From: an uncultured virus (IMG/VR IMGVR_UViG_3300042465_005830)
Lineage: Duplodnaviria > Heunggongvirae > Uroviricota > Caudoviricetes
Virus record (IMG/VR): IMGVR_UViG_3300042465_005830
Coordinates: 56,414 to 76,413 of that record
Length of the DNA stretch: 20,000 bases
Direction: 5' to 3' (one strand)
The notes below the pieces were generated by a model, which worked only from the letters and a program-made list of their open reading frames with translations, did not search any database and was not told the DNA's origin. Each line of letters begins with the position of its first letter. Within the stretch, counting starts at the first letter, position 1. Shown here piece after piece: positions 1 to 19,873 of the stretch. The position numbers and the translations under genes were made by a program.

Positions 1-2
1 AT

Positions 3-383
3 AATGAGTTCTCAGAAGAAAAACTAATTGAAAAGATTACAGAGTTAAATTTTAGATACCCTCACATCATTCTAGCACAAGCTAAATTAGAATCAGGGCA
101 TTTTAAATCAACTATCTTTCTAGAGAACAATAACATGTTCGGTATGAAAGAAGCTAAGTTAAGAGCTAATTTAGCAAAAGGTACAAACAGAAATCATGCG
201 TATTACGATTCGTGGCAAGAATCAGTTATCGATTATGCTTTGTATTATTCATCTTACTTAAGAAGTATTAAAACTGAAGGAGAGTATTTTGAATACTTAA
301 GACAGAACTATGCTGAGGATCCAACATACGTTCAAAGATTGAAACAGATTATTAAGAAACAAGATTTAAAAAGTAAATTTTAA
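3..383 (+). CDS. GH73/FlgJ-like glucosaminidase (peptidoglycan hydrolase), 5' truncated by window
   Basis: The frame is open from base 3 (NEFSEEKLIEK...HIILAQAKLESGHF...NNNMFGMK) and continues into the 135..383 ORF. AQAxLESG, NxFGMK, YxSWxESVxDY and YAEDPxY are GH73 motifs. Confidence 0.85.
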   Translation, partial: NEFSEEKLIEKITELNFRYPHIILAQAKLESGHFKSTIFLENNNMFGMKEAKLRANLAKGTNRNHAYYDSWQESVIDYALYYSSYLRSIKTEGEYFEYLRQNYAEDPTYVQRLKQIIKKQDLKSKF

Positions 384-384
384 T

Positions 385-618
385 ATGACACTAAAAGAAA
401 AGTTTTTACCTAGAATGTACTGCTTTATGGGTAGCGGGATGTTATCCAACACATACGATAAAGATGTAGCAGAAGATAATGCTATGGAATGCGAAAAAAT
501 AGCAGAAGAATTTGCTGCTGAGTTTGCAATATGGTTAGTAGAAAGAGTGGCAGGAGAGAAAGGACTGGTATTGCAGGATGGTGTATTAGAACGATTCAAA
601 AAAGAAAAAGGATTATGA
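385..618 (+). CDS. hypothetical phage protein
   Basis: 77-aa ORF packed between neighbours; ATGA overlap with the next gene. Confidence 0.7.
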   Translation: MTLKEKFLPRMYCFMGSGMLSNTYDKDVAEDNAMECEKIAEEFAAEFAIWLVERVAGEKGLVLQDGVLERFKKEKGL

Positions 619-977
619 TAGGAGGAGCACAGCCAAAAATATTACTAACTCAAAATGAGCAAGGTACATTTGATCTAGATGAAGCATTTAAGTCCATCTT
701 CGGAAAAGAACTAGAACCAAAATACAAATTAGTTCGAGAAAGAGATCAACTAACTAAAACATCAGTAGGAATAAAATGGTTAGAGTTTGATGAAGAAGGA
801 AGATACAAAGCAGACTTTAAAGACATTGCTGTTGGAAGAAGTTTATTAATGTCTCCATTCGGACCTTCATTCACTTGGCAAACAACACCAGTAACAGAAA
901 TTGTAGAACAAAGAGAAGATTATATTAAATTTAATACAGAAAATTCTGTATACGAATTGTTTGTTTTATCAAAATAA
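615..977 (+). CDS. hypothetical phage protein
   Basis: Probable start is ATG 615 (MIGGAQPK), which overlaps the upstream TGA; the longer 531 start would overlap the previous gene. Confidence 0.75.
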   Translation: MIGGAQPKILLTQNEQGTFDLDEAFKSIFGKELEPKYKLVRERDQLTKTSVGIKWLEFDEEGRYKADFKDIAVGRSLLMSPFGPSFTWQTTPVTEIVEQREDYIKFNTENSVYELFVLSK

Positions 978-991
978 ATTTCGTATATTTA
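961..991 (+). promoter_or_regulatory. Bacteroidota-type -33/-7 promoter P1
   Basis: TTG(961-963)-N20-TATATTTA(984-991), upstream of ATG 1015; same architecture recurs nine times in the window. Confidence 0.75.
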
Positions 992-1014
992 GATATTAAT
1001 TTAAAGTAAAGGTT

Positions 1015-1944
1015 ATGAAAAACATACACGTATTACCAACGGAAAATTCAAGTAGATTATCTTACAACAAAGATGGTGTATTAGAATTACACAGACTTCA
1101 ATGGAGAAAGAATACTCAAAATATCTATATCACTTCTGATGAAGAAATTAAAGAAAGAGAATGGTGTACTGATGGAATTTACCTTATACAAGCAACTCCA
1201 AAATTAGTAGATGCTCAAGGATTGTTTGATAGAAGAGATTGGAGAAAAATCATTCTAACAACAGACCAAGAGTTAATCAAAGATGGTGTACAAGCTATTG
1301 ATGATAAATTCCTAGAATGGTTTGTTAAGAATCAGAGTTGTGAGTTTGTTGAGATTAAACAAGAATTAGGTGTTTGTCTTAATTGTGAATGGAATTATGA
1401 TAGTTGTCCAAATGCTAAAGAATGTTTAAAGGGTAAATACAAAATCATCATTCCTAAAGAAGAACCTAAACTGCAATGTAAAGACTGTAATGACAATTTA
1501 ACAGATTGTACTTGTATTGAAAATACTGTTGATATGAATAAAATAAAAATATACCTAGACGACGTAAGAACACCAGTTGATCCAACTTGGAAAGTAGTTA
1601 GAAACTATGAACAATTTGTAGATCAAATTACTTATTACGGGTTAGAAAACATTGATATAATTTCATTAGATCATGATTTAGGACCTTCAGCAATGGCTGA
1701 ATGGCACTCAAACGTGTATCACAACTACGAATTAAATTATGATAACATTGAAGAGAAAACTGGAATGGATTGCACTAAATGGTTGGTCAATCAGTGGCTT
1801 GATGGATCTCCTGTTGTTGATGTTGTAATACATTCTGCAAATGCAGTTGGTAGTGCAAATATGATGGGTTACATAAACAACTACAGACACATCCATAGAT
1901 TACCTCAGAATTGTGTAAGAGTACAAATTGAACATACAGTATAA
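1015..1944 (+). CDS. phage hypothetical N-terminal domain + Cys-rich linker + C-terminal cyclic-phosphate processing receiver (cREC)-like domain
   Basis: C-terminal motifs IYLDDVRTP, ISLDHDLG, TGMDCTKWL and HSANAVG; in-frame Met at 1534 just before this domain. Confidence 0.75.
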   Translation: MKNIHVLPTENSSRLSYNKDGVLELHRLQWRKNTQNIYITSDEEIKEREWCTDGIYLIQATPKLVDAQGLFDRRDWRKIILTTDQELIKDGVQAIDDKFLEWFVKNQSCEFVEIKQELGVCLNCEWNYDSCPNAKECLKGKYKIIIPKEEPKLQCKDCNDNLTDCTCIENTVDMNKIKIYLDDVRTPVDPTWKVVRNYEQFVDQITYYGLENIDIISLDHDLGPSAMAEWHSNVYHNYELNYDNIEEKTGMDCTKWLVNQWLDGSPVVDVVIHSANAVGSANMMGYINNYRHIHRLPQNCVRVQIEHTV

Positions 1945-1949
1945 AAATT

Positions 1950-2567
1950 ATGGAAGATTTTTTTGAAGATTTAAAAAACCAACCAAGACCAAACTTCTTT
2001 AGAAGAATATATCTGTGGTGGGAACATGATGGTAAATACTTACATAAAGAAATTAAATGGGGTATTCAAAATCTTATTTACTGGTTTCCAATTATATGGA
2101 AAGATAGAAATTGGGACGGGCATTACATTTATGAAGTAATGAAACATAAGTTGAAAGCTCAAGCCAATTATATTGGAAGAAGAGATTTTCATACTCGAGC
2201 ACAGCAAGATGCTCGTAATATGAGAATATGTGTTAAATTAATTCAAGCATGTCAAGATGAGCCTTATTTAATGGAGTATATGGATTACCATAAGGACAGA
2301 GTTTGGTTTACACCTTGTGAGGATCGTGAAGGATCATCTTTATATAATTCAGAAGAGATATGGGAAAATTATGATGAGTTCTTTAAAAAGTATCCTTTAG
2401 TCTATAAGAGAGTGTTAAAAGGTGAAGGACCATTTACTTTAGATGATAGAGATGAATCTGAAATAAAAAGAATTATCGCAATGAATATTGCTCATATAAA
2501 TCACGACAGAGCAAGAAAATTACTGTTTAGAATAATGGAAGAAAATATTGAAGGATGGTGGGATTAA
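1950..2567 (+). CDS. hypothetical phage protein
   Basis: 205-aa Trp-rich ORF (WFPIIWKDRNWD...EGWWD), tightly packed. Confidence 0.75.
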   Translation: MEDFFEDLKNQPRPNFFRRIYLWWEHDGKYLHKEIKWGIQNLIYWFPIIWKDRNWDGHYIYEVMKHKLKAQANYIGRRDFHTRAQQDARNMRICVKLIQACQDEPYLMEYMDYHKDRVWFTPCEDREGSSLYNSEEIWENYDEFFKKYPLVYKRVLKGEGPFTLDDRDESEIKRIIAMNIAHINHDRARKLLFRIMEENIEGWWD

Positions 2568-2701
2568 TTACTATAGGAATATTTGTGCTAATTGGAATAG
2601 TAGCACTATGGGTTAGAGGAATAGATGAAATGCATACAAAACATCCAGACTATAAAGGAGAGGATTTGTTTGGAGAAGATGAACCAAAAAAAGATAAATG
2701 A
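2555..2701 (+). CDS. small membrane-anchored protein (48 aa, not in ORF track)
   Basis: MVGLITIGIFVLIGIVALWVRGIDEMHTKHPDYKGEDLFGEDEPKKDK*; fills the gap exactly and its TGA overlaps ATG 2698. Confidence 0.7.
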   Translation: MVGLITIGIFVLIGIVALWVRGIDEMHTKHPDYKGEDLFGEDEPKKDK

Positions 2702-3174
2702 TAAAATATTTACTTTTACTATTTACAATATTTAGTTTTAGTCAGGAACATATCCTAATAGGTGATTCGCAAACATACCTACTGGCCAGGCATTCAACTG
2801 AAATTAAACAAGTAAAACAGTTATGCCAATCAGGTATAGGTGTTGTTAAATTGAATAGGAAGACACTTAAATACCCTGTATCTCCTGCAGTTAAAAGCGT
2901 ATGTGTATGCATAGGAGTAAACGATGGATACAAGGACAGAGGTATAGATGTTTTATTAAATACTATTAAGAGAACTTTTCCAAATGCTCGTCTTTTTATC
3001 ATTCAAGGCTCATGGGGTTGGGGTACAGTAAGAAGAATGAACCAAAGTACTCTAGACAGGTACTACAAACAATTTCCAGGAACAATAATACATCCGGCAA
3101 TTGGAAAAGGAGATCCACATAAGGGTAAAAAAGTTTATAAAATTATAATGAAAAGTTTGGAAAGCCAAATATAA
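2698..3174 (+). CDS. secreted SGNH/GDSL-like hydrolase
   Basis: Signal-peptide-like N-terminus (MIKYLLLLFTIFSFS); block I IGDSQ, block III IGVND and C-terminal GDPH. Confidence 0.65.
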   Translation: MIKYLLLLFTIFSFSQEHILIGDSQTYLLARHSTEIKQVKQLCQSGIGVVKLNRKTLKYPVSPAVKSVCVCIGVNDGYKDRGIDVLLNTIKRTFPNARLFIIQGSWGWGTVRRMNQSTLDRYYKQFPGTIIHPAIGKGDPHKGKKVYKIIMKSLESQI

Positions 3175-3187
3175 TTTCATATATTTA
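3157..3187 (+). promoter_or_regulatory. Bacteroidota-type promoter P2
   Basis: TTG(3157-3159)-N20-TATATTTA(3180-3187). Confidence 0.75.
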
Positions 3188-3210
3188 GGTATAATTTAAA
3201 AGCAAAAGAT

Positions 3211-3441
3211 ATGATTTGGATTTTATTACTTTACGTTTTACCTCTACTAATATCAATAGTAGGTGTTTATTTTTTAGTTAAAAGAGATGGAGGGGCTGTA
3301 AAAGAATTTTTAGAACCACTACCTTATTTACTCATTCCCTTACTTAATATTGCTGCTGTGGTAGTAGGTATATATTTTCTTATTGAGAAATTTCTAGATG
3401 AAGATGAATCTTGGCAGAACTTTAAAAACAAAAAACTATAA
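3211..3441 (+). CDS. small two-TM membrane protein
   Basis: Two hydrophobic stretches; follows P2; its TAA overlaps the next ATG. Confidence 0.7.
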   Translation: MIWILLLYVLPLLISIVGVYFLVKRDGGAVKEFLEPLPYLLIPLLNIAAVVVGIYFLIEKFLDEDESWQNFKNKKL

Positions 3442-4142
3442 TGAAAATAACATTCATATCAGATACACATACACGGCAAGGACAAATACCATATTCAGAT
3501 TTACCTGGTGGTGATTTACTAATCCATGCTGGTGATATTATGAACTCAGGATACAATAAGAATGATATCTTTGATTTCTTACACTGGTATGATTCAATTC
3601 CAGGCTACGATAAGAAAGTGTTCATAGCAGGTAATCATGATAGAATGTTTCAAAACCATCCTGAAGATGTAAAAGAATGGTTATCTAAATTTCCAAACAT
3701 AATCTATCTGCAAGACGAGGCATACGAGATATATGACTTAGCAACAGATAAGAGCATTAAGATTTACGGATCACCTTGGCAACCAGAATTCTATTCATGG
3801 GCATTTAATTTACAAAGAAACAGTCTTGAATTATCAGGCAAGTGGGAAGCAATTCCTGACAACACAGACATCTTAATCACACACGGCCCGGCTTGGGGTT
3901 CTGTTGATACAGTAGAAGGAAGACCTTGGGACAATTTAGGATGTGAATTATTAGCAGAAAGAATTCAGAGATTTAGACCAAAGATCCATGTCTGTGGACA
4001 TATTCATTCAGGATATGGAGTTGAGACTATTGACGGCATACATTATATAAATGCCTCAGTATTAGACGAAAGATACGAATATACTCAGAAGCCTTGGAAT
4101 ATAGAATGGGATTCTGAAAGTAATATATTATTTGTAAAATAA
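3441..4142 (+). CDS. calcineurin-like metallophosphoesterase
   Basis: SDTH, HAGD, GNHD, THGP and GHIH metal-binding motifs. Confidence 0.93.
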   Translation: MKITFISDTHTRQGQIPYSDLPGGDLLIHAGDIMNSGYNKNDIFDFLHWYDSIPGYDKKVFIAGNHDRMFQNHPEDVKEWLSKFPNIIYLQDEAYEIYDLATDKSIKIYGSPWQPEFYSWAFNLQRNSLELSGKWEAIPDNTDILITHGPAWGSVDTVEGRPWDNLGCELLAERIQRFRPKIHVCGHIHSGYGVETIDGIHYINASVLDERYEYTQKPWNIEWDSESNILFVK

Positions 4143-4145
4143 ATA

Positions 4146-4176
4146 GAAAAAGGCTTGCATATGTGAGTCTTTTTTC
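4146..4176 (+). terminator. putative intrinsic terminator overlapping promoter P3
   Basis: GAAAAAGGCTTGC-ATAT-GTGAGTCTTTTTTC: G-U-rich stem plus T tract immediately after the stop at 4142. Confidence 0.5.
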
Positions 4177-4185
4177 TTATCTTTA
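4155..4185 (+). promoter_or_regulatory. Bacteroidota-type promoter P3
   Basis: TTG(4155-4157)-N20-TATCTTTA(4178-4185). Confidence 0.75.
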
Positions 4186-4210
4186 AGTATTAATTAAAAA
4201 CAAAAAGGTT

Positions 4211-4585
4211 ATGTTTAGAAGAACTAGAATTAAGATTGCTAAGAAATTTAGACAACAATTAACTCAAGAAGACTTAAGAGGGTATAGAAATATACTTAAA
4301 TTGCTTTATCATCCTAAAGCAGAAACACCCCTTAAAGATCCAGAGGTAGCTAAATACTTTATTCAAGTACCTTGCCTTCACCTTGATCTGATCATCGATA
4401 TAGAGAAAGCAGAAATTGTAAATACAAAACAAATCTACCCTCTTAACCTTGATAAGAAAGTAACAGAGCGTGCTGTACAGAGAATCAAAGAAGAAGTATC
4501 AAAACAAAGAGCAGACCTTGAAGATACAATCAGAGGTAAAAAACAAAACATATTAGACAATTTATACGTTAAAGTAAAATGGTAA
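4211..4585 (+). CDS. hypothetical basic protein
   Basis: 124-aa ORF after P3 with AAAAAGGTT-ATG start context. Confidence 0.7.
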   Translation: MFRRTRIKIAKKFRQQLTQEDLRGYRNILKLLYHPKAETPLKDPEVAKYFIQVPCLHLDLIIDIEKAEIVNTKQIYPLNLDKKVTERAVQRIKEEVSKQRADLEDTIRGKKQNILDNLYVKVKW

Positions 4586-4797
4586 AAACATTATTGACAG
4601 TGACGGTGAATGGAAATGAAATTGCATTTATAAAAGATGCAGGACATTATTTCATTCATTGGGGAGAGCAAGGAAAGCCTAGAGCAGTAAAGAAGATAAC
4701 AACTCCATCTGGAAGAAAGCCTTCACAGAACTCAGCACATAAACAATTTATGGAAGCAGTAGAAGCAACTAGAGTATTAAAATTTAGTAGATTATAA
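4579..4797 (+). CDS. hypothetical protein
   Basis: 72-aa ORF overlapping both neighbours. Confidence 0.65.
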   Translation: MVKTLLTVTVNGNEIAFIKDAGHYFIHWGEQGKPRAVKKITTPSGRKPSQNSAHKQFMEAVEATRVLKFSRL

Positions 4798-5015
4798 TGG
4801 CAGCAGAAAGTAACACACCAGTAGATATTGAAATTTGGATTGAGAAAGTAATCAATTCATGTGAGACGCTAGCACATCGTATGAATGCTTATAAATTAGT
4901 AAGACTTTATGTAAAAAGATTACAGGACGAAGGAATGCCTTACTACCAATATACCCACATTAGAGATAAGTTTGAAGGCATCTTATGGCATTTAGAAGAA
5001 AATATAAAAAACTAA
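4797..5015 (+). CDS. hypothetical protein
   Basis: 72-aa ORF with TAATG coupling to the upstream gene. Confidence 0.65.
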   Translation: MAAESNTPVDIEIWIEKVINSCETLAHRMNAYKLVRLYVKRLQDEGMPYYQYTHIRDKFEGILWHLEENIKN

Positions 5016-6674: not shown

Positions 6675-7009
6675 ATTTTATAATAGGTTTTAGCTTCGGA
6701 GTACTGGCACAAGTACTTACATTTGTACAACTACAAGGACAATTCAGATGGGAATGGTTTAAACAACATCCAATGATTATTTCACTAATGGGGGTACCAA
6801 TTTCCTTTCTTTATATTATGTCTGTAAAGTATATGGTATCGCATTTTGGAGGAGAGTTATGGCCTTCAAGACTGATGGGCTTTTCAATAGGAGCAATAGT
6901 ATTTAGTTATATGGCACATTTATGGTTTCAAGAACCATTTACTTTGAAGACACTTATATGTCTTGGATTAGCTTTTGCAATAATGATGGTTCAATTATTT
7001 TGGAAATGA
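6671..7009 (+). CDS. four-TM small membrane protein (SMR/DMT-like size and pattern)
   Basis: 112 aa with four hydrophobic helices and 'WFQEPFTLK' before the last helix, reminiscent of DMT/SMR proteins. Confidence 0.6.
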   Translation: MNFIIGFSFGVLAQVLTFVQLQGQFRWEWFKQHPMIISLMGVPISFLYIMSVKYMVSHFGGELWPSRLMGFSIGAIVFSYMAHLWFQEPFTLKTLICLGLAFAIMMVQLFWK

Positions 7010-7308
7010 AAAAACTAGAAACATGTCACCACTGCGGTGAAGAAAAAGAAAATTGTTATCACGGATTTATAACAATGTGCATTCCTGTTCCTGAAATGGA
7101 AGCAATGATTGATAAATGGGGAAGAAAAGATTGGTGGAATAATTTAGAAAGAGAAGATCTTACTGAAGAAGAAATGAAAGAACTAGATAACCTATCAATG
7201 TACGATCAGATGTTAAGCACTGTTGGAAGAGGAGTTCAATGTGAGGACTGTGGAAAGAAAGAAGCAGAGTTGTACGAAAAATACTATCCAAAAAGTTTGG
7301 AGTCTTAA
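7006..7308 (+). CDS. hypothetical protein with two CxxC motifs (possible Zn-binding)
   Basis: Probable start ATG 7006 (ATGA overlap); CHHC and CEDC motifs. Confidence 0.65.
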   Translation: MKKLETCHHCGEEKENCYHGFITMCIPVPEMEAMIDKWGRKDWWNNLEREDLTEEEMKELDNLSMYDQMLSTVGRGVQCEDCGKKEAELYEKYYPKSLES

Positions 7309-8451: not shown

Positions 8452-8463
8452 AACTTTAGTAAG

Positions 8464-8494
8464 TTGGATCATAAAAAGATATTTCTTATATTTA
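8464..8494 (+). promoter_or_regulatory. Bacteroidota-type promoter P5 (queD/queE transcript)
   Basis: TTG(8464-8466)-N20-TATATTTA(8487-8494). Confidence 0.78.
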
Positions 8495-8509
8495 TTAACA
8501 TATAACAAC

Positions 8510-8536
8510 AGTGTCGTAGCACCACTTTAAAAACAC
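8510..8536 (+). ncRNA. class I preQ1 riboswitch-like aptamer (copy 1)
   Basis: AGUG-UCGUAGCAC-CACU-UUAAAAACAC: P1 stem, UCGYAG loop ending in the specificity C, and AAAAAC tail; located in the 5' UTR of the queD/queE transcript. Confidence 0.75.
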
Positions 8537-8541
8537 ACCTT

Positions 8542-8865
8542 ATGGCAACATATTTTAAGAAGCCCTCCATAGAGAGAGCAGAACAATCGGTTATAATGGA
8601 TAGAGTTCTAGAACAAAAAAAGAAAGAACTTTCACCTGAGGATTTCAAAACCTATACAAACTTTACAACTCAGCAAGAACTACTTGAAGAAGCAGCTAGA
8701 AGAAATCTATTAGCAATTCCAGATCCAAAATTACATCAAACAATTTCATTTATTAAATCCGGTATAAGAATACTCGGATACTTCCTACTACCTTTTAATC
8801 TTCTAATAGGAGCCGGAGTATTAATTTTAAGTGAAATAGTTGGTATTTACGAAGAATTAGTTTAA
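8542..8865 (+). CDS. hypothetical protein with C-terminal hydrophobic hairpin
   Basis: 107 aa; C-terminal ISFIKSGIRILGYFLLPFNLLIGAGVLILSEIVGIYEELV; first gene behind aptamer copy 1. Confidence 0.75.
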   Translation: MATYFKKPSIERAEQSVIMDRVLEQKKKELSPEDFKTYTNFTTQQELLEEAARRNLLAIPDPKLHQTISFIKSGIRILGYFLLPFNLLIGAGVLILSEIVGIYEELV

Positions 8866-8874
8866 ATTAGAGTT

Positions 8875-9024
8875 ATGAGACAGGTAAACGATCACGTAAA
8901 AGAAGCTTTAGGAATAAAGCCTAAAAAGAGATTTAAGAAAGACTACACAAAAGCATTTGTATGGATCCTACTAGGAGCTATAACAGTTGCTATATGGACA
9001 ACAATTTACAATTTAATATTTTAA
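8875..9024 (+). CDS. small single-TM protein (49 aa, not in ORF track)
   Basis: MRQVNDHVKEALGIKPKKRFKKDYTKAFVWILLGAITVAIWTTIYNLIF*; fills the gap before queD. Confidence 0.65.
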   Translation: MRQVNDHVKEALGIKPKKRFKKDYTKAFVWILLGAITVAIWTTIYNLIF

Positions 9025-9027
9025 CAA

Positions 9028-9489
9028 ATGAAATTTCAATCAACAAAAGTCTTTGATGGATACTCAACAGTATTTCGTCAATGGAGAGCAGAAGGTACTC
9101 ATTGCAGGTTCCTACACGGTTATGGTATTTCTTTCAAAATTACTTTTGAAGGAGATCTAGACGAAAGAAACTGGGTATGGGACTTTGGAGGAATGAAGAG
9201 AGCTAAAAACACTATTGATGGTATGCCTCCTAAAGCATGGATGGACCATATGTTCGACCATACTTACATCATTGCAAAAGATGATCCATTCTTACCAAAA
9301 GCATTAGAGATGCACAACGAAGAAATAATCCAACTAAGAATAATTCCAGCTACAGGAGCAGAACAATTCGCTAAATTTATCTATGATAAAGTATCTGAAT
9401 TTATACAAATAGAAACAGAAGGTAGAGTAAGAGTAGTGAGTGTAGAATTTAAAGAACATAACAAAAACTCAGCGATATATGGAGAGTAA
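9028..9489 (+). CDS. queD: 6-carboxy-5,6,7,8-tetrahydropterin synthase (PTPS/QueD family)
   Basis: HCRFLHGY, WDFGGMK, FDHT and TGAEQFA (T-fold PTPS motifs); adjacent to queE. Confidence 0.88.
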   Translation: MKFQSTKVFDGYSTVFRQWRAEGTHCRFLHGYGISFKITFEGDLDERNWVWDFGGMKRAKNTIDGMPPKAWMDHMFDHTYIIAKDDPFLPKALEMHNEEIIQLRIIPATGAEQFAKFIYDKVSEFIQIETEGRVRVVSVEFKEHNKNSAIYGE

Positions 9490-9689: not shown

Positions 9690-9821
9690 ATGGTAGCAAA
9701 ACCTAATTTAACAATGGAAGAGTTCCACAAATACTTACAGGATGTAATAGACTCTAAATTAAATCTAAGACAGAAAGTAGTAGCGGTAGAAATGTATATA
9801 AAACAAATAACAGGTAGATGA
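9690..9821 (+). CDS. hypothetical protein (43 aa, not in ORF track)
   Basis: MVAKPNLTMEEFHKYLQDVIDSKLNLRQKVVAVEMYIKQITGR*; ATGA overlap with queE. Confidence 0.6.
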   Translation: MVAKPNLTMEEFHKYLQDVIDSKLNLRQKVVAVEMYIKQITGR

Positions 9822-10591
9822 AAAGAATAGAAGATTATAACAAAACACTTCCAATTGTAGAGCTTTATACAGCTGTACAATCAGAAGGAAGTAGAGCAGG
9901 CTATCCAACAGTAGTAATCAGAACAACAGGCTGTACTCACAGATGTTGGTTTGGTGAAGGTGGATGGTGTGATTCTTGGTACACAAGTATTCATCCTGAA
10001 AAAGGACATATTAGTTTCCAAGACATTATCAACATGTACGATAAGAATCCTCACATCACAGAGATGATGCTAACAGGAGGATCACCAACAATGCATCCAG
10101 CATTAGTAAATGAATTAACACATTTTGCACATGAAAGAAATATTTTCATTACAATTGAGACCGAAGGAAGTCATTTTCTTGAAACGGATTACCCAATTAA
10201 TCTATTATCAATCTCCCCTAAGTTCAGTAATTCTGTCCCTAAGGTTGGCGTACTCACACCTCAAGGAGACGTTACAGATGAAAGAATGATCAAACAGCAT
10301 AACAAGTTAAGATTAAACTACGATGCAATTTCTAAATCAATCTCGTATCATTCCGATTACCACTTAAAGCCAGTATGGGATGGAGAGGATCAAGAAGCGT
10401 TAGCAGAAATTATGGCTTGTATTAAAATGCTAGACATACCTCAAGACAAAGTATGGTTCATGCCAGCTGGAGATTCAAGAGAAGCTTTATTCAAATCATA
10501 TCCAAAAATGTTTGATTGGGTGAGAGATAATGGTTACAGATTGACTTGGAGACCTCACATCATTGCATTTGAGGACAAAAGAGAAGTGTAG
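9818..10591 (+). CDS. queE: 7-carboxy-7-deazaguanine synthase (radical SAM)
   Basis: ELYTAVQSEG..G.P.V.IRT.GC, CTHRC...WCDS, LTGGSP, IETEG, SISPK and final RPH motifs. Confidence 0.93.
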   Translation: MKRIEDYNKTLPIVELYTAVQSEGSRAGYPTVVIRTTGCTHRCWFGEGGWCDSWYTSIHPEKGHISFQDIINMYDKNPHITEMMLTGGSPTMHPALVNELTHFAHERNIFITIETEGSHFLETDYPINLLSISPKFSNSVPKVGVLTPQGDVTDERMIKQHNKLRLNYDAISKSISYHSDYHLKPVWDGEDQEALAEIMACIKMLDIPQDKVWFMPAGDSREALFKSYPKMFDWVRDNGYRLTWRPHIIAFEDKREV

Positions 10592-10789: not shown

Positions 10790-11089
10790 ATGACATTAAA
10801 AGATCTAATCGATTTAGCAGGAGACAGAGAATTATCAAAAGCATATCCAAAAGCAGATGGCCTTTACATCTGGGACTATAAGTTACAGTTTAACGGTACT
10901 AAAAATTTTGAATTAGAGTTAGTACTAATACCAAGCGACTCAGGTAAGACAGGATTTAAAGATAAAGTATCTATCGAAGAATTAGTAAACTACGTACTGG
11001 AGTCAACAGATCCAGAAGTATCAGGAGATGAAATTATCTCACAACTACCAATAGTAGACGTGGAAGGAATTACAATTGCAAAGGTATAA
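10790..11089 (+). CDS. hypothetical protein
   Basis: 99-aa ORF with AAAGTT-ATG context. Confidence 0.7.
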   Translation: MTLKDLIDLAGDRELSKAYPKADGLYIWDYKLQFNGTKNFELELVLIPSDSGKTGFKDKVSIEELVNYVLESTDPEVSGDEIISQLPIVDVEGITIAKV

Positions 11090-11090
11090 T

Positions 11091-11675
11091 ATGAAGAAGT
11101 TTTTATTATTACTCTTACTTCCGTTAGTAGGGTTTGGACAGTTAAGAGATAGCGTTTATGTAAAGACAGACATCTACGAAGTGATGTATTCAGAGACACT
11201 AGAACAACCATTGTGGGTAAAGTACCAAGTACTATGTACAGGTGCTGGAGCATCTAGAAAAGGAATGGATTTTTATACAGATAAAACAATTCATACTTCA
11301 GATGCAAAAGATTATGTAAATAATGTTTACGACAAAGGACATTGTGCTCCAGCGGCAGACTTTAACTGCACTAGAGAAATGTTACTTAAAACATTTTCAT
11401 ACTTAAACTGTACCCTACAGAATGAAAGACTGAACAGAGTTCATTGGAGATTATTAGAAGACTATGAAAGACTTCTAGCCTTTTCAGAAGGACCAGTCAA
11501 TGTAGAAATAAAAATAGTATTTGACAAAGTACCTAAAAGAGTACCTGCAGGTGCAGCTATACCAACAGCTTTCTATAAAATTATCAAAACTAAAAATAAA
11601 ACACTTGCTTTCTATTTCTTAAATGAAGCACCAAAGAAAGCAACGTTTGTAGATTATCAAGTAAAACTTAACTAG
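11091..11675 (+). CDS. secreted DNA/RNA non-specific endonuclease (NucA/Serratia beta-beta-alpha-Me family)
   Basis: Signal peptide MKKFLLLLLLPLVGFG (start ATG 11091); PLWVKY, YDKGHCAPAADF, TFSYLNCTLQ...LN..W..LE and IPTAFYKII motifs. Confidence 0.9.
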   Translation: MKKFLLLLLLPLVGFGQLRDSVYVKTDIYEVMYSETLEQPLWVKYQVLCTGAGASRKGMDFYTDKTIHTSDAKDYVNNVYDKGHCAPAADFNCTREMLLKTFSYLNCTLQNERLNRVHWRLLEDYERLLAFSEGPVNVEIKIVFDKVPKRVPAGAAIPTAFYKIIKTKNKTLAFYFLNEAPKKATFVDYQVKLN

Positions 11676-11677
11676 TT

Positions 11678-12073
11678 ATGGCACTAAAAATAGGAAACAA
11701 AGTTTATTTAAGCTGGGATGATATTAATATCTTAGTAGAAGATTTATGTCAGACAATAGCTTCATCAGGAGCAGAAATTAAATCGATAACAGGTATTCAA
11801 AGAGGAGGGTTAATACCAGCAGTAATGATCTCCCACAAGCTCCATATACCTTTCGTTAGTAGAATAAATAAAGATACTCTTGTTGTAGATGACATTTGTG
11901 ATACAGGAGAGACGTTAAAAAAGACTATTGGAATGTATACTGCAACGCTTCATTACAAACCAACAGCAATATTTACCCCAGACTTCTATTCAAAAGAAGT
12001 AGGAACAGAGTGGATTGTTTACCCTTGGGAAAGAAATGATTCAGAAACTATTCAAGATTATTTGAAAAAATAG
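11678..12073 (+). CDS. type I phosphoribosyltransferase, Gpt (xanthine-guanine PRTase)-like
   Basis: YLSWDD, GIQRGGLIPA, PRPP loop VVDDICDTGET and WIVYPWE. Confidence 0.9.
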   Translation: MALKIGNKVYLSWDDINILVEDLCQTIASSGAEIKSITGIQRGGLIPAVMISHKLHIPFVSRINKDTLVVDDICDTGETLKKTIGMYTATLHYKPTAIFTPDFYSKEVGTEWIVYPWERNDSETIQDYLKK

Positions 12074-12104
12074 TTGCAGGATAGAATAAAAAATGTTATA
12101 TTAA
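12074..12104 (+). promoter_or_regulatory. Bacteroidota-type promoter P6 (folE transcript)
   Basis: TTG(12074-12076)-N20-TATATTAA(12097-12104). Confidence 0.75.
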
Positions 12105-12111
12105 ATAAAAC

Positions 12112-12138
12112 GGAGTCGTAGAACCTCCATAAAAACAA
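12112..12138 (+). ncRNA. class I preQ1 riboswitch-like aptamer (copy 2)
   Basis: GGAG-UCGUAGAAC-CUCC-AUAAAAACAA, ending 6 nt before the folE ATG; closely parallels the T. tengcongensis aptamer as recalled (CUGGG-UCGCAGUAAC-CCCAG-UUAACAAAACAAG). Confidence 0.82.
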
Positions 12139-12144
12139 TCTTAT

Positions 12145-12855
12145 ATGTCAAATAAAAAATTTATCGACGGTACAGAATTAGTACAAGCCGGATTCGCTAA
12201 TGGAATCTCAACACAATTAGCAAAAAAACAATTAATAGATGGTCCAGAAGCAAGACTAACTGAAGAAGAAAAGCAAGCTATTATCGAGAATGCTGCAGTA
12301 GCTTTTGGGCAATTCCTTTCAGCTTTAGGGTGTGATTGGAGTAATGATCCAAATTCATCTGATACTCCTAAGAGAGTTGCAAAAGCATATGTAAATGATT
12401 TATGGGCAGGTCGATTTGAACCAATGACTAAGATCACAGCATTCCCTTCTGATGGGTATGACGGAATAGTATTCGAAGGAAACATTCCAATTACTTCAAT
12501 GTGCTCTCATCATCACCAAACAATCACAGGAAGAGTTCATATCGGATATGTTCCTTCAGCAGATGGAAAAGTAGTTGGACTTTCTAAATTGAATAGAATT
12601 GTAGAGCAATTTGCTCGTAGAGGAGCTATCCAAGAACAATTAACAGTTGCAATTCATAATGCAGTAGATAAGATCTGTGAAGGTAATCTAGGAGTAGCAG
12701 TTATGATTGAAGCAGGACATAATTGTGTAAGCTGTAGAGGTATTAAGCATCAAGGTGCTTCAATGAAGACAGCAAAATTAACAGGATGTTTCTTAGACGA
12801 AGCATCAGCAAGAGCAGAATTTTACGAATTTGTAAAAGGATATAGTTGTAAATAA
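12145..12855 (+). CDS. folE: GTP cyclohydrolase I
   Basis: TPKRVAK, SMCSHH, GLSKLNRIV, QEQLT and HNCVSCRG motifs. Confidence 0.95.
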   Translation: MSNKKFIDGTELVQAGFANGISTQLAKKQLIDGPEARLTEEEKQAIIENAAVAFGQFLSALGCDWSNDPNSSDTPKRVAKAYVNDLWAGRFEPMTKITAFPSDGYDGIVFEGNIPITSMCSHHHQTITGRVHIGYVPSADGKVVGLSKLNRIVEQFARRGAIQEQLTVAIHNAVDKICEGNLGVAVMIEAGHNCVSCRGIKHQGASMKTAKLTGCFLDEASARAEFYEFVKGYSCK

Positions 12856-13066: not shown

Positions 13067-13095
13067 AAGTTGGCTCTTCGGAGCCAATTTCTTAT
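13067..13095 (+). terminator. intrinsic terminator with cUUCGg tetraloop, overlapping promoter P7
   Basis: TTGGCTC-TTCG-GAGCCAA perfect 7-bp stem followed by TTTCTTAT, immediately after the stop at 13065. Confidence 0.8.
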
Positions 13096-13100
13096 ATTAA
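13070..13100 (+). promoter_or_regulatory. Bacteroidota-type promoter P7
   Basis: TTG(13070-13072)-N20-TATATTAA(13093-13100). Confidence 0.72.
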
Positions 13101-13630: not shown

Positions 13631-13833
13631 TGCAAGCAGCACTAGACCATTTAGAAAAGCATAAAGTGTTTATTGATACTTTAGGTATAGATATGATTCC
13701 TTTATCAGAGGCTTATAAAGCAGTTGAGAAATCTATTGATAGTCAGCTGGCAGAAGTTATGGAAACATTACAGACACAGCTAGGAGGGTTAGTAGAAGAT
13801 TTAGAAGATATAACACCAGAAAATAATGATTAA
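13630..13833 (+). CDS. hypothetical acidic protein
   Basis: 67-aa ORF coupled to both neighbours. Confidence 0.65.
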   Translation: MQAALDHLEKHKVFIDTLGIDMIPLSEAYKAVEKSIDSQLAEVMETLQTQLGGLVEDLEDITPENND

Positions 13834-14620
13834 GATAGCACACGAATCACCGAAGAGTATATTTAAAGAAGTACAAAAGCATACTGATTACGACTATGCA
13901 CTTGTTCACTTATTTGAAGAAGATCCAGAATACTTAAAACAGTTTCAAGAAGCTAAAGAAGCAGGTAGAGAAATTATTTTAGATAATTCTATATTTGAAT
14001 TAGAAGAAGCTTTTGATGCAGAGAAGTTTGCAGGATGGGTATTAGAATTAAAGCCAGATTGGTATATAGTTCCAGATGCTTTAGAAGATGCAAAGAAGAC
14101 TGTTAAGCAGATGACTGAATGGAATAACAAATATAAAAATCTTCCAGGAAAGAAAATAGGAGTTGTTCAAGGAAAGACTTATAGTCAAATTAAGACTTGT
14201 TATGAGTATATGGATAAGATTGCAAATGTAGATATGATTGCAATTTCATTCGACTATTCGTACTATACTAATACTATTTCTCATCCTAACAAGTATGTTA
14301 GCTGGATGTTAGGAAGGGTTAAGCTACTAGGAGATCTGTTGAGAGACGGTGTAATAAACGAAGAGAAGAAGCATCACTTATTAGGATGTGGATTACCTCA
14401 AGAGTTTTCTTTTTACTCAGATTATAAATGGATCTATTCTTTAGATACTTCTAATCCAGTTGTACATGGTATAAAAGGAATTGAGTATAGAGCAGACGGA
14501 TTATGGTCAAAAGAGTCTCAAAAGTTATTTGAACTAATCAATTACGTACCAGAAGATACGAATATGATTCTTCAGAACATTCACAAATTCAGATGGTTTG
14601 CAAATGGACGCAAAGTATAA
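13826..14620 (+). CDS. TGT-fold 7-deazaguanine enzyme, DpdA3-like
   Basis: IILDNSIFE (variant of the TGT/DpdA DSG motif), IVPD, IGVVQG, HHLLG and SLDTS match the order of TGT barrel motifs; located within a que cluster. Confidence 0.72.
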   Translation: MIKIAHESPKSIFKEVQKHTDYDYALVHLFEEDPEYLKQFQEAKEAGREIILDNSIFELEEAFDAEKFAGWVLELKPDWYIVPDALEDAKKTVKQMTEWNNKYKNLPGKKIGVVQGKTYSQIKTCYEYMDKIANVDMIAISFDYSYYTNTISHPNKYVSWMLGRVKLLGDLLRDGVINEEKKHHLLGCGLPQEFSFYSDYKWIYSLDTSNPVVHGIKGIEYRADGLWSKESQKLFELINYVPEDTNMILQNIHKFRWFANGRKV

Positions 14621-14783
14621 AGTAGGAGAGATGGTTATTATTAATCTCGATAATGAGATTATAGATGCTGAAGTATTTGGAATAGTAAATAACACTTCAG
14701 GAAAACCTTCGTACAGTTTAAGAGTAAAAGGTAATTTTATCTTTGTAGATGAAAGTAGAATAATAAGTATATCACATGAGTAG
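14604..14783 (+). CDS. small SH3/KOW-like hypothetical protein
   Basis: MDAKYKVGEMV...AEV...YSLRV...FVDE beta-rich pattern; ATG 14604. Confidence 0.55.
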   Translation: MDAKYKVGEMVIINLDNEIIDAEVFGIVNNTSGKPSYSLRVKGNFIFVDESRIISISHE

Positions 14784-15303
14784 GCCTTGGATAGCATTCT
14801 TTAGTCAAACAGGATCAGAGATCGTAGAAGTGTCAAAGCTTTTAGGAAGATGGCCTGATATGATAGTAACAAACGAAAGACCAGAACATCTTAGAAAGAT
14901 TCATCCGGCTTTAGAATCAAAGCATTTAGTCTTTGTAGAGAATAAACCTACAGAAGAAGAATTGTCAATGATACTTGGCCAATATGGAAATCCTTTAGTA
15001 ACTCTTCATGGATGGTTGAGAATTATGCCTCCATATATCTGTAATCGATTTGAAATCTATAACGGACATCCAGGACTTATAACTGAATATCCAGAACTAA
15101 AAGGAAAAGATCCTCAGCAAAAAGCTTTCGACCTAGGATTAGAATCCTCAGGATGTGTTATTCATAGAGTAACAGAAGGAGTTGATGAAGGAGAGATACT
15201 CCGTAGTAGAAAAGTTTCTATAAAAGGGTTGGAGATTGGAGAATTATTTCATATATTACATAGTATATCAGTAAGTCTTTGGGTAGACTTCTTAAAAAAT
15301 TAG
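14776..15303 (+). CDS. PurN-like formyltransferase (DpdN-like, predicted preQ1 N-formyltransferase)
   Basis: FFSQTGSE, LHGWLRIM, NGHPGL and SGCVIHRVTEGVDEG parallel PurN (SGxGSN, LAGFMRIL, NIHPSLL, GxTVHxVxxxxDxG). Confidence 0.85.
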   Translation: MSRPWIAFFSQTGSEIVEVSKLLGRWPDMIVTNERPEHLRKIHPALESKHLVFVENKPTEEELSMILGQYGNPLVTLHGWLRIMPPYICNRFEIYNGHPGLITEYPELKGKDPQQKAFDLGLESSGCVIHRVTEGVDEGEILRSRKVSIKGLEIGELFHILHSISVSLWVDFLKN

Positions 15304-15831: not shown

Positions 15832-16755
15832 ATGGCAGAATTAAATCAAGCAGAAGTAGTAAAGATTGCCGGAAAGCATCTTGGTAAAGTAGGAGGAGAA
15901 GGTTATAAGGATACTTATGATCCAGAATTATTAGTAGAGATTCCTCGTTACTTAAACAGAGAAGCATACGGAATAGACGATAACAACTTACCATTTGTTG
16001 GAGGAGATGTTTGGAATGCATACGAAGTATCAGCAATCACTACAAAAGGACTTCCAGTAGTAGGGATGTTGAAAATTTACTATCCAGCAGATTCAAAACT
16101 TCACGTAGAGTCTAAATCTATCAAATTGTATTTGAATTCATTCAATATGACTCAAATGGGAGATACAGCAGCAGAGTGTATTGCAATTTTAAAAGATAGA
16201 GTAAAGAGAGATTTATCTGAGAAGTTACAAACAAATGTAGAAGTAGAGATGTTTACTTCAGACTTTGGACCAGCATATGCATTTAAAGGATATGCACAAT
16301 TGGATCAAATAGCTAATCTAGATAATATTGAATTTACTTCTTATCATTCAGATGCTACACAATTGGAAACAGAAGAAGTAGATGATGATTTCGAAATTGG
16401 AGTAATCAAAATACAATCAAATCTTTTAAGATCAAATTGTAGAGTAACAAATCAACCAGACTGGGGTGATGTATTTATTCACATTAAACCTAAAGCAGGA
16501 GTTGTTCCTAATTTAGAATCATTAGCAAAATATATTGTAAGTCACAGACAAGTAAGTCACTTCCACGAAGAGATTTGTGAAATGGTTTACATGCACTTAA
16601 GAGAAGCTTACAATCCAGAAGAATTAATGGTAGCTTGTCTTTACACTCGTAGAGGAGGATTAGATATTAATCCAGTAAGAGCTTCACATAAGGAATTAAT
16701 CCCAAGCTTCTTTGCAGATGTAAAATGCAGAATGGAAAAAACATTACGCCAATAA
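15832..16755 (+). CDS. queF: NADPH-dependent preQ0 reductase, bimodular (E. coli YqcD-type)
   Basis: DVWNAYEVS, QueF motif ESKSIKLYLNSF, catalytic LRSNCRVTNQPDWG, FHEEICE and YTRRGGLDINP. Confidence 0.95.
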   Translation: MAELNQAEVVKIAGKHLGKVGGEGYKDTYDPELLVEIPRYLNREAYGIDDNNLPFVGGDVWNAYEVSAITTKGLPVVGMLKIYYPADSKLHVESKSIKLYLNSFNMTQMGDTAAECIAILKDRVKRDLSEKLQTNVEVEMFTSDFGPAYAFKGYAQLDQIANLDNIEFTSYHSDATQLETEEVDDDFEIGVIKIQSNLLRSNCRVTNQPDWGDVFIHIKPKAGVVPNLESLAKYIVSHRQVSHFHEEICEMVYMHLREAYNPEELMVACLYTRRGGLDINPVRASHKELIPSFFADVKCRMEKTLRQ

Positions 16756-19839: not shown

Positions 19840-19842
19840 AAG

Positions 19843-19873
19843 TTGTTTCCTTAGATATTTATTCATATATTAG
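19843..19873 (+). promoter_or_regulatory. Bacteroidota-type promoter P9
   Basis: TTG(19843-19845)-N20-TATATTAG(19866-19873). Confidence 0.7.

Follow-up and report, generated by a model that had tools for sequence, protein, structure and literature searches.

The window analysed here is the whole stretch of 20,000 nt from an uncultured virus of the Caudoviricetes (positions 56,414 to 76,413 of IMG/VR record IMGVR_UViG_3300042465_005830). Its plus strand carries genes for 7-deazaguanine synthesis and two copies, A and B, of an element of ~26 nt that consists of a hairpin and an A-rich tail. Some of the assignments below come from a cultured relative, the Flavobacterium phage vB_FspM_immuto (immuto).

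8463..8492, plus strand: promoter-like site, GTTG-N20-TATATT, which ends 17 nt before copy A and is kept upstream in relatives.
8510..8513, plus strand: 5′ strand of stem P1 of copy A, AGUG (sequence read, stem covariation count).
8514..8522, plus strand: loop of copy A, UCGUAGCAC, with L1 (UC), the putative P2 5′ strand (GUAG) and L2 (CAC), as mapped onto the aptamer in the accessible part of PMC7641330.
8523..8526, plus strand: 3′ strand of stem P1 of copy A, CACU (sequence read, stem covariation count).
8527..8537, plus strand: L3 tail of copy A, UUAAAAA, then CACA, the putative P2 3′ strand (sequence read, relatives).
8542..8865, plus strand: first ORF behind copy A, 107 aa, of a virus-only family (ORF list, relatives).
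8875..9024, plus strand: 49-aa ORF, whose immuto homologue, just before queD, is annotated as a hypothetical protein.
9028..9489, plus strand: queD, 6-pyruvoyl-tetrahydropterin synthase family (PF01242, E 6e-15).
9818..10591, plus strand: queE, radical SAM 7-carboxy-7-deazaguanine synthase (from the annotation of the immuto homologue).
12073..12102, plus strand: promoter-like site of the folE copy, which ends 9 nt before copy B (upstream alignment, strict search).
12112..12139, plus strand: copy B, GGAG-UCGUAGAAC-CUCC-AUAAAAA-CAAU (covariance model, 48.3 bits).
12145..12855, plus strand: folE, GTP cyclohydrolase I (PF01227, E 8.6e-45).
13826..14620, plus strand: DpdA-like DNA guanine transglycosylase (immuto annotation, phrog_19058), pathway context outside the proposed switch.
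14776..15303, plus strand: DpdN-like formyltransferase (PF00551; accessible part of PMC10516641), likewise context.
15832..16755, plus strand: QueF-like nitrile reductase (domain search), whose presence tracks the element across records.

In the DNA, copy A (8510-8535, read as AGUG-UCGUAGCAC-CACU-UUAAAAA-CA) runs AGTG (8510-8513), TCGTAGCAC (8514-8522), CACT (8523-8526), TTAAAAA (8527-8533), C (8534) and A (8535), with the 3′ flank ACACCTT leading to the ATG at 8542; copy B (12112-12137, read as GGAG-UCGUAGAAC-CUCC-AUAAAAA-CA) runs GGAG (12112-12115), TCGTAGAAC (12116-12124), CTCC (12125-12128), ATAAAAA (12129-12135), C (12136) and A (12137), with its ATG at 12145. The exact motif TCGTAGNAC occurs at two places in the window, which are copies A and B, and searching the entire 76-kb record with a covariance model made from relatives recovers these two sites and no others (53.4 and 48.3 bits, the latter being copy B). 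The stems differ at pair 1 (A-U in copy A, G-C in copy B) and at pair 3 (U-A and A-U respectively), and both changes are compensatory, which bears out what the earlier note had said of the two copies. That note had also placed copy A at the head of a queD/queE transcript; queD and queE do lie downstream, but the adjoining gene is the 107-aa ORF, which starts 7 nt past the conserved C and is followed by the 49-aa ORF. The family of the 107-aa ORF has the motif PDPKLHQxISFIKSGIRIxGY, and its members are conserved small proteins of 50-107 aa that form a hydrophobic helical hairpin. Copy B lies ahead of folE, whose product is the first enzyme of the 7-deazaguanine pathway, in which QueF converts preQ0 to preQ1.

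Beyond the window, this is a widespread, strand-specific 5′-leader element of Flavobacterium-type phages. All 55 unique instances are on the coding strand, with an ATG 4-12 nt past the conserved C, and 53 of them sit ahead of the small ORF (35), folE (15), queD (two) or queE (one), the locus being cut in the other two. An exact-pattern scan of viral contigs gave at least 119 loci; the matches listed include 35 family members, every one with four Watson-Crick stem pairs, and 10 matches with three of the four pairs, which are unrelated sequences. Searches anchored on the small protein or on FolE are free of motif bias. The element stands directly before the small ORF in 34 of 80 loci (out of more than 300) and is missing from the other 46, and it precedes folE in 40 of 80 loci (out of more than 550), with one further doubtful case. 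Across many viral contigs it is nearly unchanged, with adjacent proteins that are just 45-75% identical. Several counts, here and below, come from sets picked by patterns or models that fix certain columns (G2, G4 and the 'AC' before the P1 3′ strand), and invariance at these is therefore partly by construction.

An exact-pattern scan across genomes of 185,579 species yielded 36 loci, and the only family members are two loci (L222 and L223) that share one phage-like contig of 5.9 kb, assigned to a Verrucomicrobiales MAG. The remaining loci were set aside as G+C-rich chance matches, eight of them with four stem pairs but without the preQ1 signal, and an Rfam scan of ten bacterial pattern matches gave no match to a preQ1 family. 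Neither our broader phage model (R2) nor the Rfam preQ1 model RF00522 had a match in 151 sampled Bacteroidota-side genomes, for which part of the first-look candidates were scored. When the 36-40-nt elements were compared by BLAST with deposited phages, copy B matched immuto isolates only and copy A gave nothing convincing.

Stem P1 covaries. Among 37 unique cores with four pairs each, 146 of 148 cells are paired, pairs 2 and 4 being fixed by the selection pattern; pair 1 is A-U in 16 cores, U-A in 11, G-C in eight and mismatched in the other two, and pair 3 is U-A in 25 and A-U in 12. The covariation score was reached by none of 500 shuffles, and slid controls were 29-63% paired. P1 is 4 bp long in all instances, with unpaired flanking bases (C/U in copy A, C/A in copy B). 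Together with the constant location on the coding strand, this supports the earlier proposal that selection acts on RNA structure rather than on a DNA repeat. Helix P2, which would close the pseudoknot, is weakly supported by the same alignments. Its first pair, G-C, is invariant and hence uninformative; the second candidate pair (11-31) is U-A in 24, U-G in seven, C-G in six and something else in nine sequences, so that 37 of 46 are paired; the third (12-30) is paired in only four of 46, and copy B has U opposite U. Attempts at a longer P2 found no consistent register, and loop variants with A at position 4 misfit any single one. Also dropped was a supposed tracking of stem type by the middle loop base, because TGTG stems with loop A and GGTG or AGTG stems before folE break the rule.

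By itself the hairpin is marginal (−2.4 to −4.1 kcal/mol; z-scores −0.8 to −1.5) and indistinguishable from shuffles, and copy A in isolation prefers a competing GUGU/GCAC hairpin. Such energies, in a short element of A+T-rich DNA, would fit a chance likeness or a functionless repeat; we lend that explanation almost no credence, given near-constancy beside such divergent proteins, compensatory stem changes and strict gene association.

Upstream of both copies lies a promoter-like box, derived by aligning upstream regions, which in relatives ends 9-18 nt before the element. The strict pattern (GTTG-N16-22-TATATT) matches five sites on the plus strand of the window, compared with 0.77 expected by chance, two of them with the element; the nine promoters counted in the earlier note, two of which were said to carry it, were not reproduced. 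A sigma-70-type promoter scan missed the phage promoter. RNA-library contigs from two studies start at 8495 and 8500, which is a weak hint; such contigs cannot show a transcript start, stretches that they leave uncovered carry no weight, and two others (X15, from 8425, and X16, from 8462) cross the presumed start. Such closeness to the promoter box (9-18 bp), and a stem that is also an inverted repeat, would suit an operator or promoter part that a transcription factor binds as double-stranded or cruciform DNA. At two of its four positions the stem changes with no constraint other than complementarity, even from one copy to the other in a single genome, and the arms are thus not read by sequence; the conserved loop and A-tail lack symmetry and invariably sit beside the AUG on the coding strand; and three of the five promoter-like sites in the window, like another viral locus with the same promoter (L127), lack the element. 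We regard a DNA-level operator as very improbable.

RF00522 represents the class I preQ1 riboswitches, whose type II aptamers include those of Thermoanaerobacter tengcongensis (Tte) and Bacillus subtilis. The earlier note had called the element a preQ1-I-like aptamer on deazaguanine genes and had named a cmsearch as a check; with RF00522 the check came back empty. Neither copy reaches the gathering cut-off of 39 bits, nor is there a match to either at E ≤ 10 in the window or in 101-nt stretches, and the only match in the 76-kb record is unrelated noise at window positions 7000-7024 (10.3 bits). The remainder of that claim draws support from P1 covariation, gene and QueF association, and the bases of the binding pocket. 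For a preQ1 riboswitch before the que operon of phage Dp-1, Rfam gave no match at E ≤ 0.1 in bases 1-5000, and no claim is kept on it.

According to the accessible part of PMC7641330, the Tte type II aptamer reads preQ1 by U6 and A29, with C15 as the specificity base; G5-C16 lies beneath the pocket and a C7-G11-C30 base triple in its ceiling; P2 consists of non-canonical G8-A31 and A10-A32 and canonical C9-G33; A14 fills the empty pocket; and A23-A28 lie in the minor groove. The unpaired bases invariant in 46 unique phage sequences are, in order, the P1-closing G, then U, C, A, G, A, C, the C that opens the P1 3′ strand, AAAA, C and A, and they map one-to-one onto the pocket as described there (U6, C7, A10, G11, A14, C15, A29, C30 and A31). 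The counterparts of U6 (8514 and 12116) and C15 (8522 and 12124) are invariant in 46 of 46 and 37 of 37 unique sequences, the selection patterns having required 'T' and 'AC' at these columns, and the last C of L2 in copy A (8522) is the putative specificity base. A weak model match (L284, 15 bits) has TTC in place of the 'AC' context before the P1 3′ strand. The AAAA, the tail C and the loop G do not vary among the 46 sequences, and L3 is mostly 7 nt, with a range of 6-9 across relatives.

The likeness extends to individual bacterial sequences. A true RF00522 match from a Clostridia genome (L243, 31.2 bits; CCGGG-TCGCAGCTAC-CCCGG-TTAAAAAAAC-AAGG) and a phage instance (L148:4884; TGTG-TCGCAGTAC-CACT-TTAAAAAC-AAA) differ in a single stem pair, a single base of L2 and two non-stem bases of the tail. 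The phage loop variants UCGUAG, UCACAG, UCGCAG, UCGAAG, UUCGAAG and UUGAAG are paralleled by UCGCAG, UUCGAAG and UUCGUAA in bacterial RF00522 members. With R2, six of 15 weak matches fell exactly on true RF00522 sites, on the right strand and in register, the best match to true RF00522 loci reaching 14 bits (E 0.53) and the type II-like L243 being absent; the narrow phage model (R1) had no significant match to true RF00522 loci.

With type II aptamers the element shares a P1 closed by G-C, a loop that starts U-C-(G/A)-(C/U)-A-G and ends A-C, a tail rich in A with C-A behind it, a putative role in controlling genes of 7-deazaguanine synthesis and a site shortly before the start codon, where the translational Tte switch also lies (PMC10639078, accessible part). 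It differs in having a P1 of 4 rather than 5 bp, an L2 of 3 rather than 4-6 nt and a P2 3′ strand that is no Shine-Dalgarno (SD) sequence, in giving no score with RF00522, and in being phage-encoded, in two copies per genome, for DNA hypermodification instead of tRNA queuosine. P1 is 5-6 bp in all three preQ1-I subtypes as described in the accessible parts of PMC10622847 and PMC10639078. The type III aptamer ('Eco', of Escherichia coli yhhQ) is also very small, with a 3-nt L2 and an expression platform within the pocket region, and its 30-mer minus one P1 pair still binds preQ1 at ~52 nM, which makes a P1 one pair below the natural stem compatible with binding. Type III itself has a pyrimidine-rich loop and a longer, variable tail ending AAGG, unlike the type II-like loop (UCGYAG) of the phage element, and occurs almost only in gamma-proteobacteria, before yhhQ (PMC10622847, accessible part). 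The element probably represents a new, compact subtype with a preQ1-I-like mode of action. McCown et al. in 2014 reportedly defined the three known subtypes; that survey lay outside our literature search, and the literature searched held no published description of the element.

A short hairpin with an invariant loop beside a start codon is also the typical look of a protein-binding RNA operator, at which a phage or host protein would repress translation and the RNA would sense no small molecule; that no known RNA family model scores the element, and that P2 is undemonstrated, suits such a site as well. Yet a protein site has no reason for invariant bases that fit the preQ1-I pocket position by position, or for loop variants that parallel bacterial ones. 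No candidate RNA-binding protein was found travelling with the element either, the sole near-constant neighbour being the hydrophobic helical-hairpin protein, which is element-free in the 46 loci mentioned. We consider a protein operator unlikely, if worth keeping in view, and favour a small-molecule aptamer.

The distribution of QueF bears on the ligand of such an aptamer. Of 23 FolE-bearing phage records, the same 10 have both the element and QueF and the other 13 have neither; QueF is also found in five of five further element-bearing records and, with the element, in the window's own record, an association that could stem from the common ancestry of a single phage clade instead of function. 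Many of the records are fragments. This co-occurrence points to preQ1 or a derivative, not preQ0, as the probable ligand. The same fold could serve another effector, such as preQ0, or N-formyl-preQ1 if formylation precedes insertion. Type II aptamers discriminate merely 17-fold between preQ1 and preQ0, and L2 has 3 nt, the length found in type III, whose recognition of the side chain is shaped by L2 together with the backbone (accessible part of PMC10622847); in a relative the final base is fdPreQ1, and the accessible text of PMC10516641 leaves open whether DpdN acts on free preQ1 or dPreQ1. Against this, the ligand-contacting bases are all as in preQ1 binders, and the perfect QueF co-occurrence favours preQ1 or a product of it over preQ0. 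The sign of control could likewise be reversed, with ligand releasing an alternative pairing between loop and start region to turn translation on: in the minimum-energy fold of copy A (56 nt), the loop is paired to the region of the AUG. That pairing was rejected, being no better than in shuffled sequence (z +0.47) and not predicted for copy B. Another effector or the opposite sign has, between them, a small but real chance.

We hold it fairly probable, on comparative sequence evidence, that the element is a compact RNA aptamer working as a class I (type II-like) preQ1 riboswitch with feedback on the pathway; because the ligand-contacting bases of preQ1 riboswitches are kept, the phage probably monitors and limits how much modified base it has at its disposal. 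In copy A, the element would lie at the 5′ end of the mRNA, with the likely start of transcription ~10-15 nt upstream and the AUG 7 nt downstream. A 4-bp P1 would bear a loop made up of L1, the P2 5′ strand and a 3-nt L2 that has the specificity cytosine as its last base; UUAAAAA, the A-rich tail, would dock in the P1 minor groove, and the C after the tail would pair with the loop G, giving an H-type pseudoknot around one preQ1 (perhaps also preQ0). The bases that separate element and AUG (ACACCUU in copy A, AAUCUUAU in copy B) include no purine-rich SD sequence, and no terminator-like site was found behind the element. Bacteroidetes mRNAs lack SD sequences, and the structure of the mRNA, along with nucleotides upstream, tunes initiation (PMC6847099, accessible part). 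With no SD to sequester, we infer the expression platform from these properties: when ligand causes the A-tract and the bases after it to dock, the ribosome landing site would be hidden, since SD-free starts in the host phylum need an unstructured leader and key upstream nucleotides, and translation of the first ORF would fall. Expression of queD-queE would be lowered too, by coupling or reduced ribosome loading, and the folE twin would act likewise on the first pathway enzyme, so that both copies would exert feedback on the flux from GTP to the 7-deazaguanine base destined for phage DNA.

In the cultured relative vB_FspM_immuto_2-6A, the folE copy of the element is present and departs from that of the window at one base in 40. 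Its DNA is 88% identical to the window from queD to DUF4494, with the same gene order, and differs in that the small ORF and copy A are missing, the folE copy being the only one within the 15.5-kb stretch examined. The immuto record has no annotation at the element site. In immuto DNA, fdPreQ1 replaces all G, and the words 'riboswitch' and 'regulat' are absent from the accessible text of that report (PMC10516641).

Joined into one reading, these strands would make the element a fourth class I preQ1 subtype and, with ~26 nt counted from the first base of the stem to the one that follows the pseudoknot C, the smallest aptamer in nature that senses a metabolite. It would be confined to phages of Flavobacteriia-like hosts, whose phylum shows neither the element nor canonical preQ1-I in the sampled genomes, and would act without SD, the docking A-tract being the ribosome's own leader. 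Two such switches would meter a base that replaces every G, and the small helical-hairpin protein would be an unrecognised component of the pathway. We entertain this combination tentatively, with slightly more doubt than belief.

Known preQ1 riboswitches serve the bacterial supply of tRNA queuosine. If the reading is true, this one would have a new job, viral DNA hypermodification, which needs one modified base per G of every progeny genome; hypermodification being an anti-restriction trait, phage counter-defence would be subject to control at this switch. A working pseudoknot of 4 bp and 26 nt would push down the lower size limit of natural aptamers and would show riboswitch control of translation in a phylum that ignores Shine-Dalgarno sequences. 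As Rfam misses the element, a widespread regulatory RNA of aquatic viromes would have been overlooked by current annotation. Riboswitch-guided gene discovery would mark the small conserved ORF as a candidate member of the pathway, and a cultured system exists with vB_FspM_immuto, a phage of Flavobacterium, and its folE copy.

Two copies of a preQ1-I-like hairpin with an A-rich tail occur in the window, both on the + strand. Their loop, spacer and tail are identical and their stems differ at pairs 1 and 3 with both sides changed, confirming the compensatory changes and the conserved loop, spacer and tail described in the earlier note. They are the only sites found by exact search of the window for TCGTAGNAC at zero mismatches, and the only hits on the whole 76-kb record of R1, a narrow covariance model of the phage element (53.4 bits for copy A, 48.3 for copy B).

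Element copies in the window
8510-8535, + strand: copy A, AGTG TCGTAGCAC CACT TTAAAAA C A, then ACACCTT and ATG at 8542
12112-12137, + strand: copy B, GGAG TCGTAGAAC CTCC ATAAAAA C A, ATG at 12145

The window is of phage origin, its long ORFs all lie on the + strand, and QueC is encoded elsewhere in the 76-kb record. The gene adjoining copy A is a 107-aa ORF rather than queD, which comes only after a further, 49-aa ORF. At 11076-12073, inside the queE-folE stretch, lie a phosphoribosyltransferase and an NS-type endonuclease whose N-terminus is hydrophobic; the cultured relative Flavobacterium phage vB_FspM_immuto (immuto) has the transferase at this place and apparently not the endonuclease.

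Genes of the window, with the source of the assignment
5203, + strand: thymidylate synthase (Pfam)
7333, + strand: glycosyltransferase (Pfam)
8542-8865, + strand: 107-aa ORF directly behind copy A (no Pfam or PHROG family)
Between 107-aa ORF and queD, + strand: 49-aa ORF
9028, + strand: QueD (Pfam)
Between queD and queE: 69-aa ORF
9818, + strand: radical-SAM QueE (Pfam)
11076, + strand: NS-type endonuclease (Pfam)
11678, + strand: phosphoribosyltransferase, 131 aa (Pfam)
12145, + strand: FolE (Pfam)
+ strand: DUF4494 (Pfam)
13118, + strand: MazG-like hydrolase (Pfam)
13826, + strand: DpdA, 264-aa ORF (annotation of immuto)
14776, + strand: formyltransferase (Pfam)
+ strand: AAA kinase (Pfam)
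15832, + strand: QueF (Pfam)
17506, + strand: DNA polymerase A (Pfam)

A pattern scan of viral contigs with TCGTAGNAC-N6-AAAAAC, which did not demand a stem, returned at least 119 loci. Among the matches listed, four stem pairs were present in 36, 35 of them plainly related and one (L016) a chance match, and three stem pairs in 10, all unrelated sequences. Two motif-independent searches, anchored on the small protein encoded by the 107-aa ORF and its relatives (80 of 304 places) and on FolE (80 of 557 places), located the element immediately 5′ of the small ORF in 34/80 loci and ahead of folE in 40/80, plus one doubtful case (L284); its absence from 46/80 small-protein loci is mostly because the ORF there directly succeeds another ORF. 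All 55 unique instances are on the coding strand, with 4-12 nt from the conserved C to the ATG. The gene 3′ of the element is most often that for the small protein (35/55), followed by FolE (15), QueD (2) and QueE (1); in the remaining two the locus is cut, and one begins FolE-like.

In 37 unique cores, selected with at least 3/4 pairs and with G2, G4 and their partners fixed, 146 of the 148 P1 stem cells are paired, against 29-63% in slid controls. Pair 1 is A-U in 16, U-A in 11, G-C in 8 and other in 2, and pair 3 is U-A in 25 and A-U in 12, with no one-sided changes; the two mismatches, both at pair 1, are in L148:4884 and L312. None of 500 shuffles reached the covariation score of P1. Among the 46 unique sequences used to build R1, the G of the loop and the C that follows the A-tract, candidates for the pseudoknot helix P2, are invariant, a second candidate pair is U-A in 24, U-G in 7, C-G in 6 and other in 9, and a third is paired in only 4/46; a pseudoknot is suggested, though P2 is weakly supported. 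The hairpin alone is predicted at -2.4 to -4.1 kcal/mol, no better than shuffles; weak stems are common among aptamers of the preQ1-I kind, and this value speaks neither for nor against the fold. In isolation, copy A is predicted to favour a competing hairpin, GUGU-(CGUA)-GCAC (8511-8522), over P1. This hairpin, likewise predicted in all AGUG/C-loop relatives and impossible in copy B, might sharpen ligand dependence or might mean nothing.

The element resembles the T. tengcongensis type II aptamer, for which PMC7641330 describes preQ1 read by U6 and A29 with C15 as the specificity base, stem C16 in the pocket floor, a C7-G11-C30 base triple as the pocket ceiling, a P2 of canonical C9-G33 and G11-C30 flanking non-canonical G8-A31 and A10-A32, an empty pocket filled by A14, and A23-A28 in the stem minor groove. 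Bases follow the same order in the phage element, G(stem) U C (G/A) (U/C/A) A G N A C C(stem) ... A-tract C A, with stem G, U, C, A, G, A, C, stem C, AAAA, C and A invariant in the 46 unique sequences. The doubtful case ahead of folE (L284:337-400) is a divergent instance that retains a GGTG/CACC stem but has the loop TCGTAGTTC, in which the A before the specificity C is replaced, and a much longer tail (GTCATAAATAAATTAAAAC); its R1 score is only 15 bits. Reference sites for the Rfam PreQ1 model, RF00522, came from Clostridia genomes at E<=0.001 (match in 12/121); one that is type II-like (L243) reads CCGGG TCGCAGCTAC CCCGG TTAAAAAAAC AAGG, and phage instance L148:4884 reads TGTG TCGCAGTAC CACT TTAAAAAC AAA. 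The phage loop variants UCGUAG, UCACAG, UCGCAG, UCGAAG, UUCGAAG and UUGAAG parallel the bacterial RF00522 loops UCGCAG, UUCGAAG and UUCGUAA.

Formal model searches do not strongly link the two. The cmsearch check proposed in the earlier note was negative, RF00522 reporting neither copy at any threshold tried, and R1 had no significant match on true RF00522 sites; R2, a broader model, gave 6/15 weak matches there in the correct strand and register (best 14 bits, E 0.53), L243 not among them. The element departs from the described class in its P1 of 4 bp (5-6 bp for all preQ1-I subtypes in PMC10622847 and PMC10639078), an L2 of 3 nt like that of type III, an L3 of mostly 7 nt and the lack of a Shine-Dalgarno sequence. 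Given these weak scores and structural differences, we do not file the element under RF00522; we regard it as a new compact variant, most likely with a preQ1-I-like mode of action, and the reading as a structured preQ1-I-like RNA is supported.

Among 23 FolE-bearing phage records, the R1 element and Pfam QueF, which produces preQ1, occur in the same 10 and neither in the other 13; QueF is also present in 5/5 further element-bearing records, and the record under study has both. These records are related to one another and many are fragments, so the pattern is an association rather than a test by independent contrasts; it still fits preQ1 or a derivative better than preQ0. One main alternative, an unlikely one, is that an RNA of this fold binds another 7-deazapurine or regulates with the opposite sign. 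In immuto DNA the modified base fdPreQ1 substitutes for all G (Table 1 and text of PMC10516641, where neither 'riboswitch' nor 'regulat' appears). Bacteroidetes mRNAs lack Shine-Dalgarno sequences, and both the structure of the mRNA and key nucleotides upstream, among them A at -3, tune initiation (PMC6847099); counted from the AUG, the A-tract and next bases of the element lie at about -15 to -1. Upon ligand binding the tail would dock on P1 and the G-C pseudoknot pair would close, removing the unstructured leader and so repressing initiation. That the RNA is instead a protein-bound operator, the other main alternative, seems equally improbable. We consider the element to be probably a phage-borne, miniature preQ1-I-like translational riboswitch.

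With one genome per prokaryote species, an exact-pattern scan found the element only on a single 5.9-kb phage-like contig, NYWG01000135.1 (L222, L223), filed in a Verrucomicrobiales MAG; it bears both copies along with folE and the small ORF, and resembles phage sequence that was binned with the MAG. R2 and RF00522 had no match among the candidates scored, a part of the total, in 151 sampled genomes of a Bacteroidales MAG's phylum. BLAST against 50,697 deposited phage records retrieved only immuto isolates for copy B and nothing convincing for copy A, and full-text literature on preQ1 riboswitches with phages, DpdA, deazaguanine or Dp-1 yielded no description of the element. The presence of a preQ1 riboswitch in Streptococcus phage Dp-1 was not borne out on its que operon, ahead of or inside which no Rfam riboswitch family matched (L333, bases 1-5000, E<=0.1).

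The element begins 9-18 nt past the end of a conserved promoter-like box, GTTG-N19-20-(c)TTATATT. The nine promoters counted previously were not reproduced: the strict box has five + strand matches in the window (0.77 expected), two of which bear the element. A sigma-70 consensus scan missed the boxes at 8463 and 12073, and the box at 13069 shares sequence with a terminator-like hairpin at 13067-13090.

Promoter-like boxes, GTTG-N16-22-TATATT
8463-8492, + strand
12073-12102, + strand
13069-13098, + strand
15228-15257, + strand
19842-19871, + strand

At locus L127 (2411-2512), the box and ORF start (MATY...) are as in the window and the small protein is 60% identical, with the element absent, which makes the element a separable module; L127 and the window form a natural presence/absence pair for it. 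Parts of the copy A region occur as metatranscriptome contigs in four runs, including one of 540 nt (8500-9039, 93% identical, depth 158) and, from a separate study, one of 230 nt (8495-8724, 2 differences). These two (runs X17 and X18) span the element and small ORF and start 3-8 nt past the promoter box, a weak hint only of a transcript start, because DNA may be present in RNA libraries and contig boundaries do not reveal transcript ends; two further contigs, from two other runs and starting at 8425 and 8462, run across both the promoter and that point. Since no terminator-like + strand site precedes 13067, transcription could plausibly run from 8500 through queE as one unit.

The small protein, the commonest product encoded behind the element, belongs to a family seen only in viruses, whose C-terminal half is conserved (PDPKLHQxISFIKSGIRIxGY ... 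LSEIVGIxEELV). For the 107-aa protein AlphaFold2 confidently predicts a helical hairpin (residues 62-82 and 87-106, pLDDT 87-96). Its 304 relatives in viral contigs were in every case observed beside 7-deazaguanine genes, and the small protein may have an overlooked role in the 7-deazaguanine pathway.
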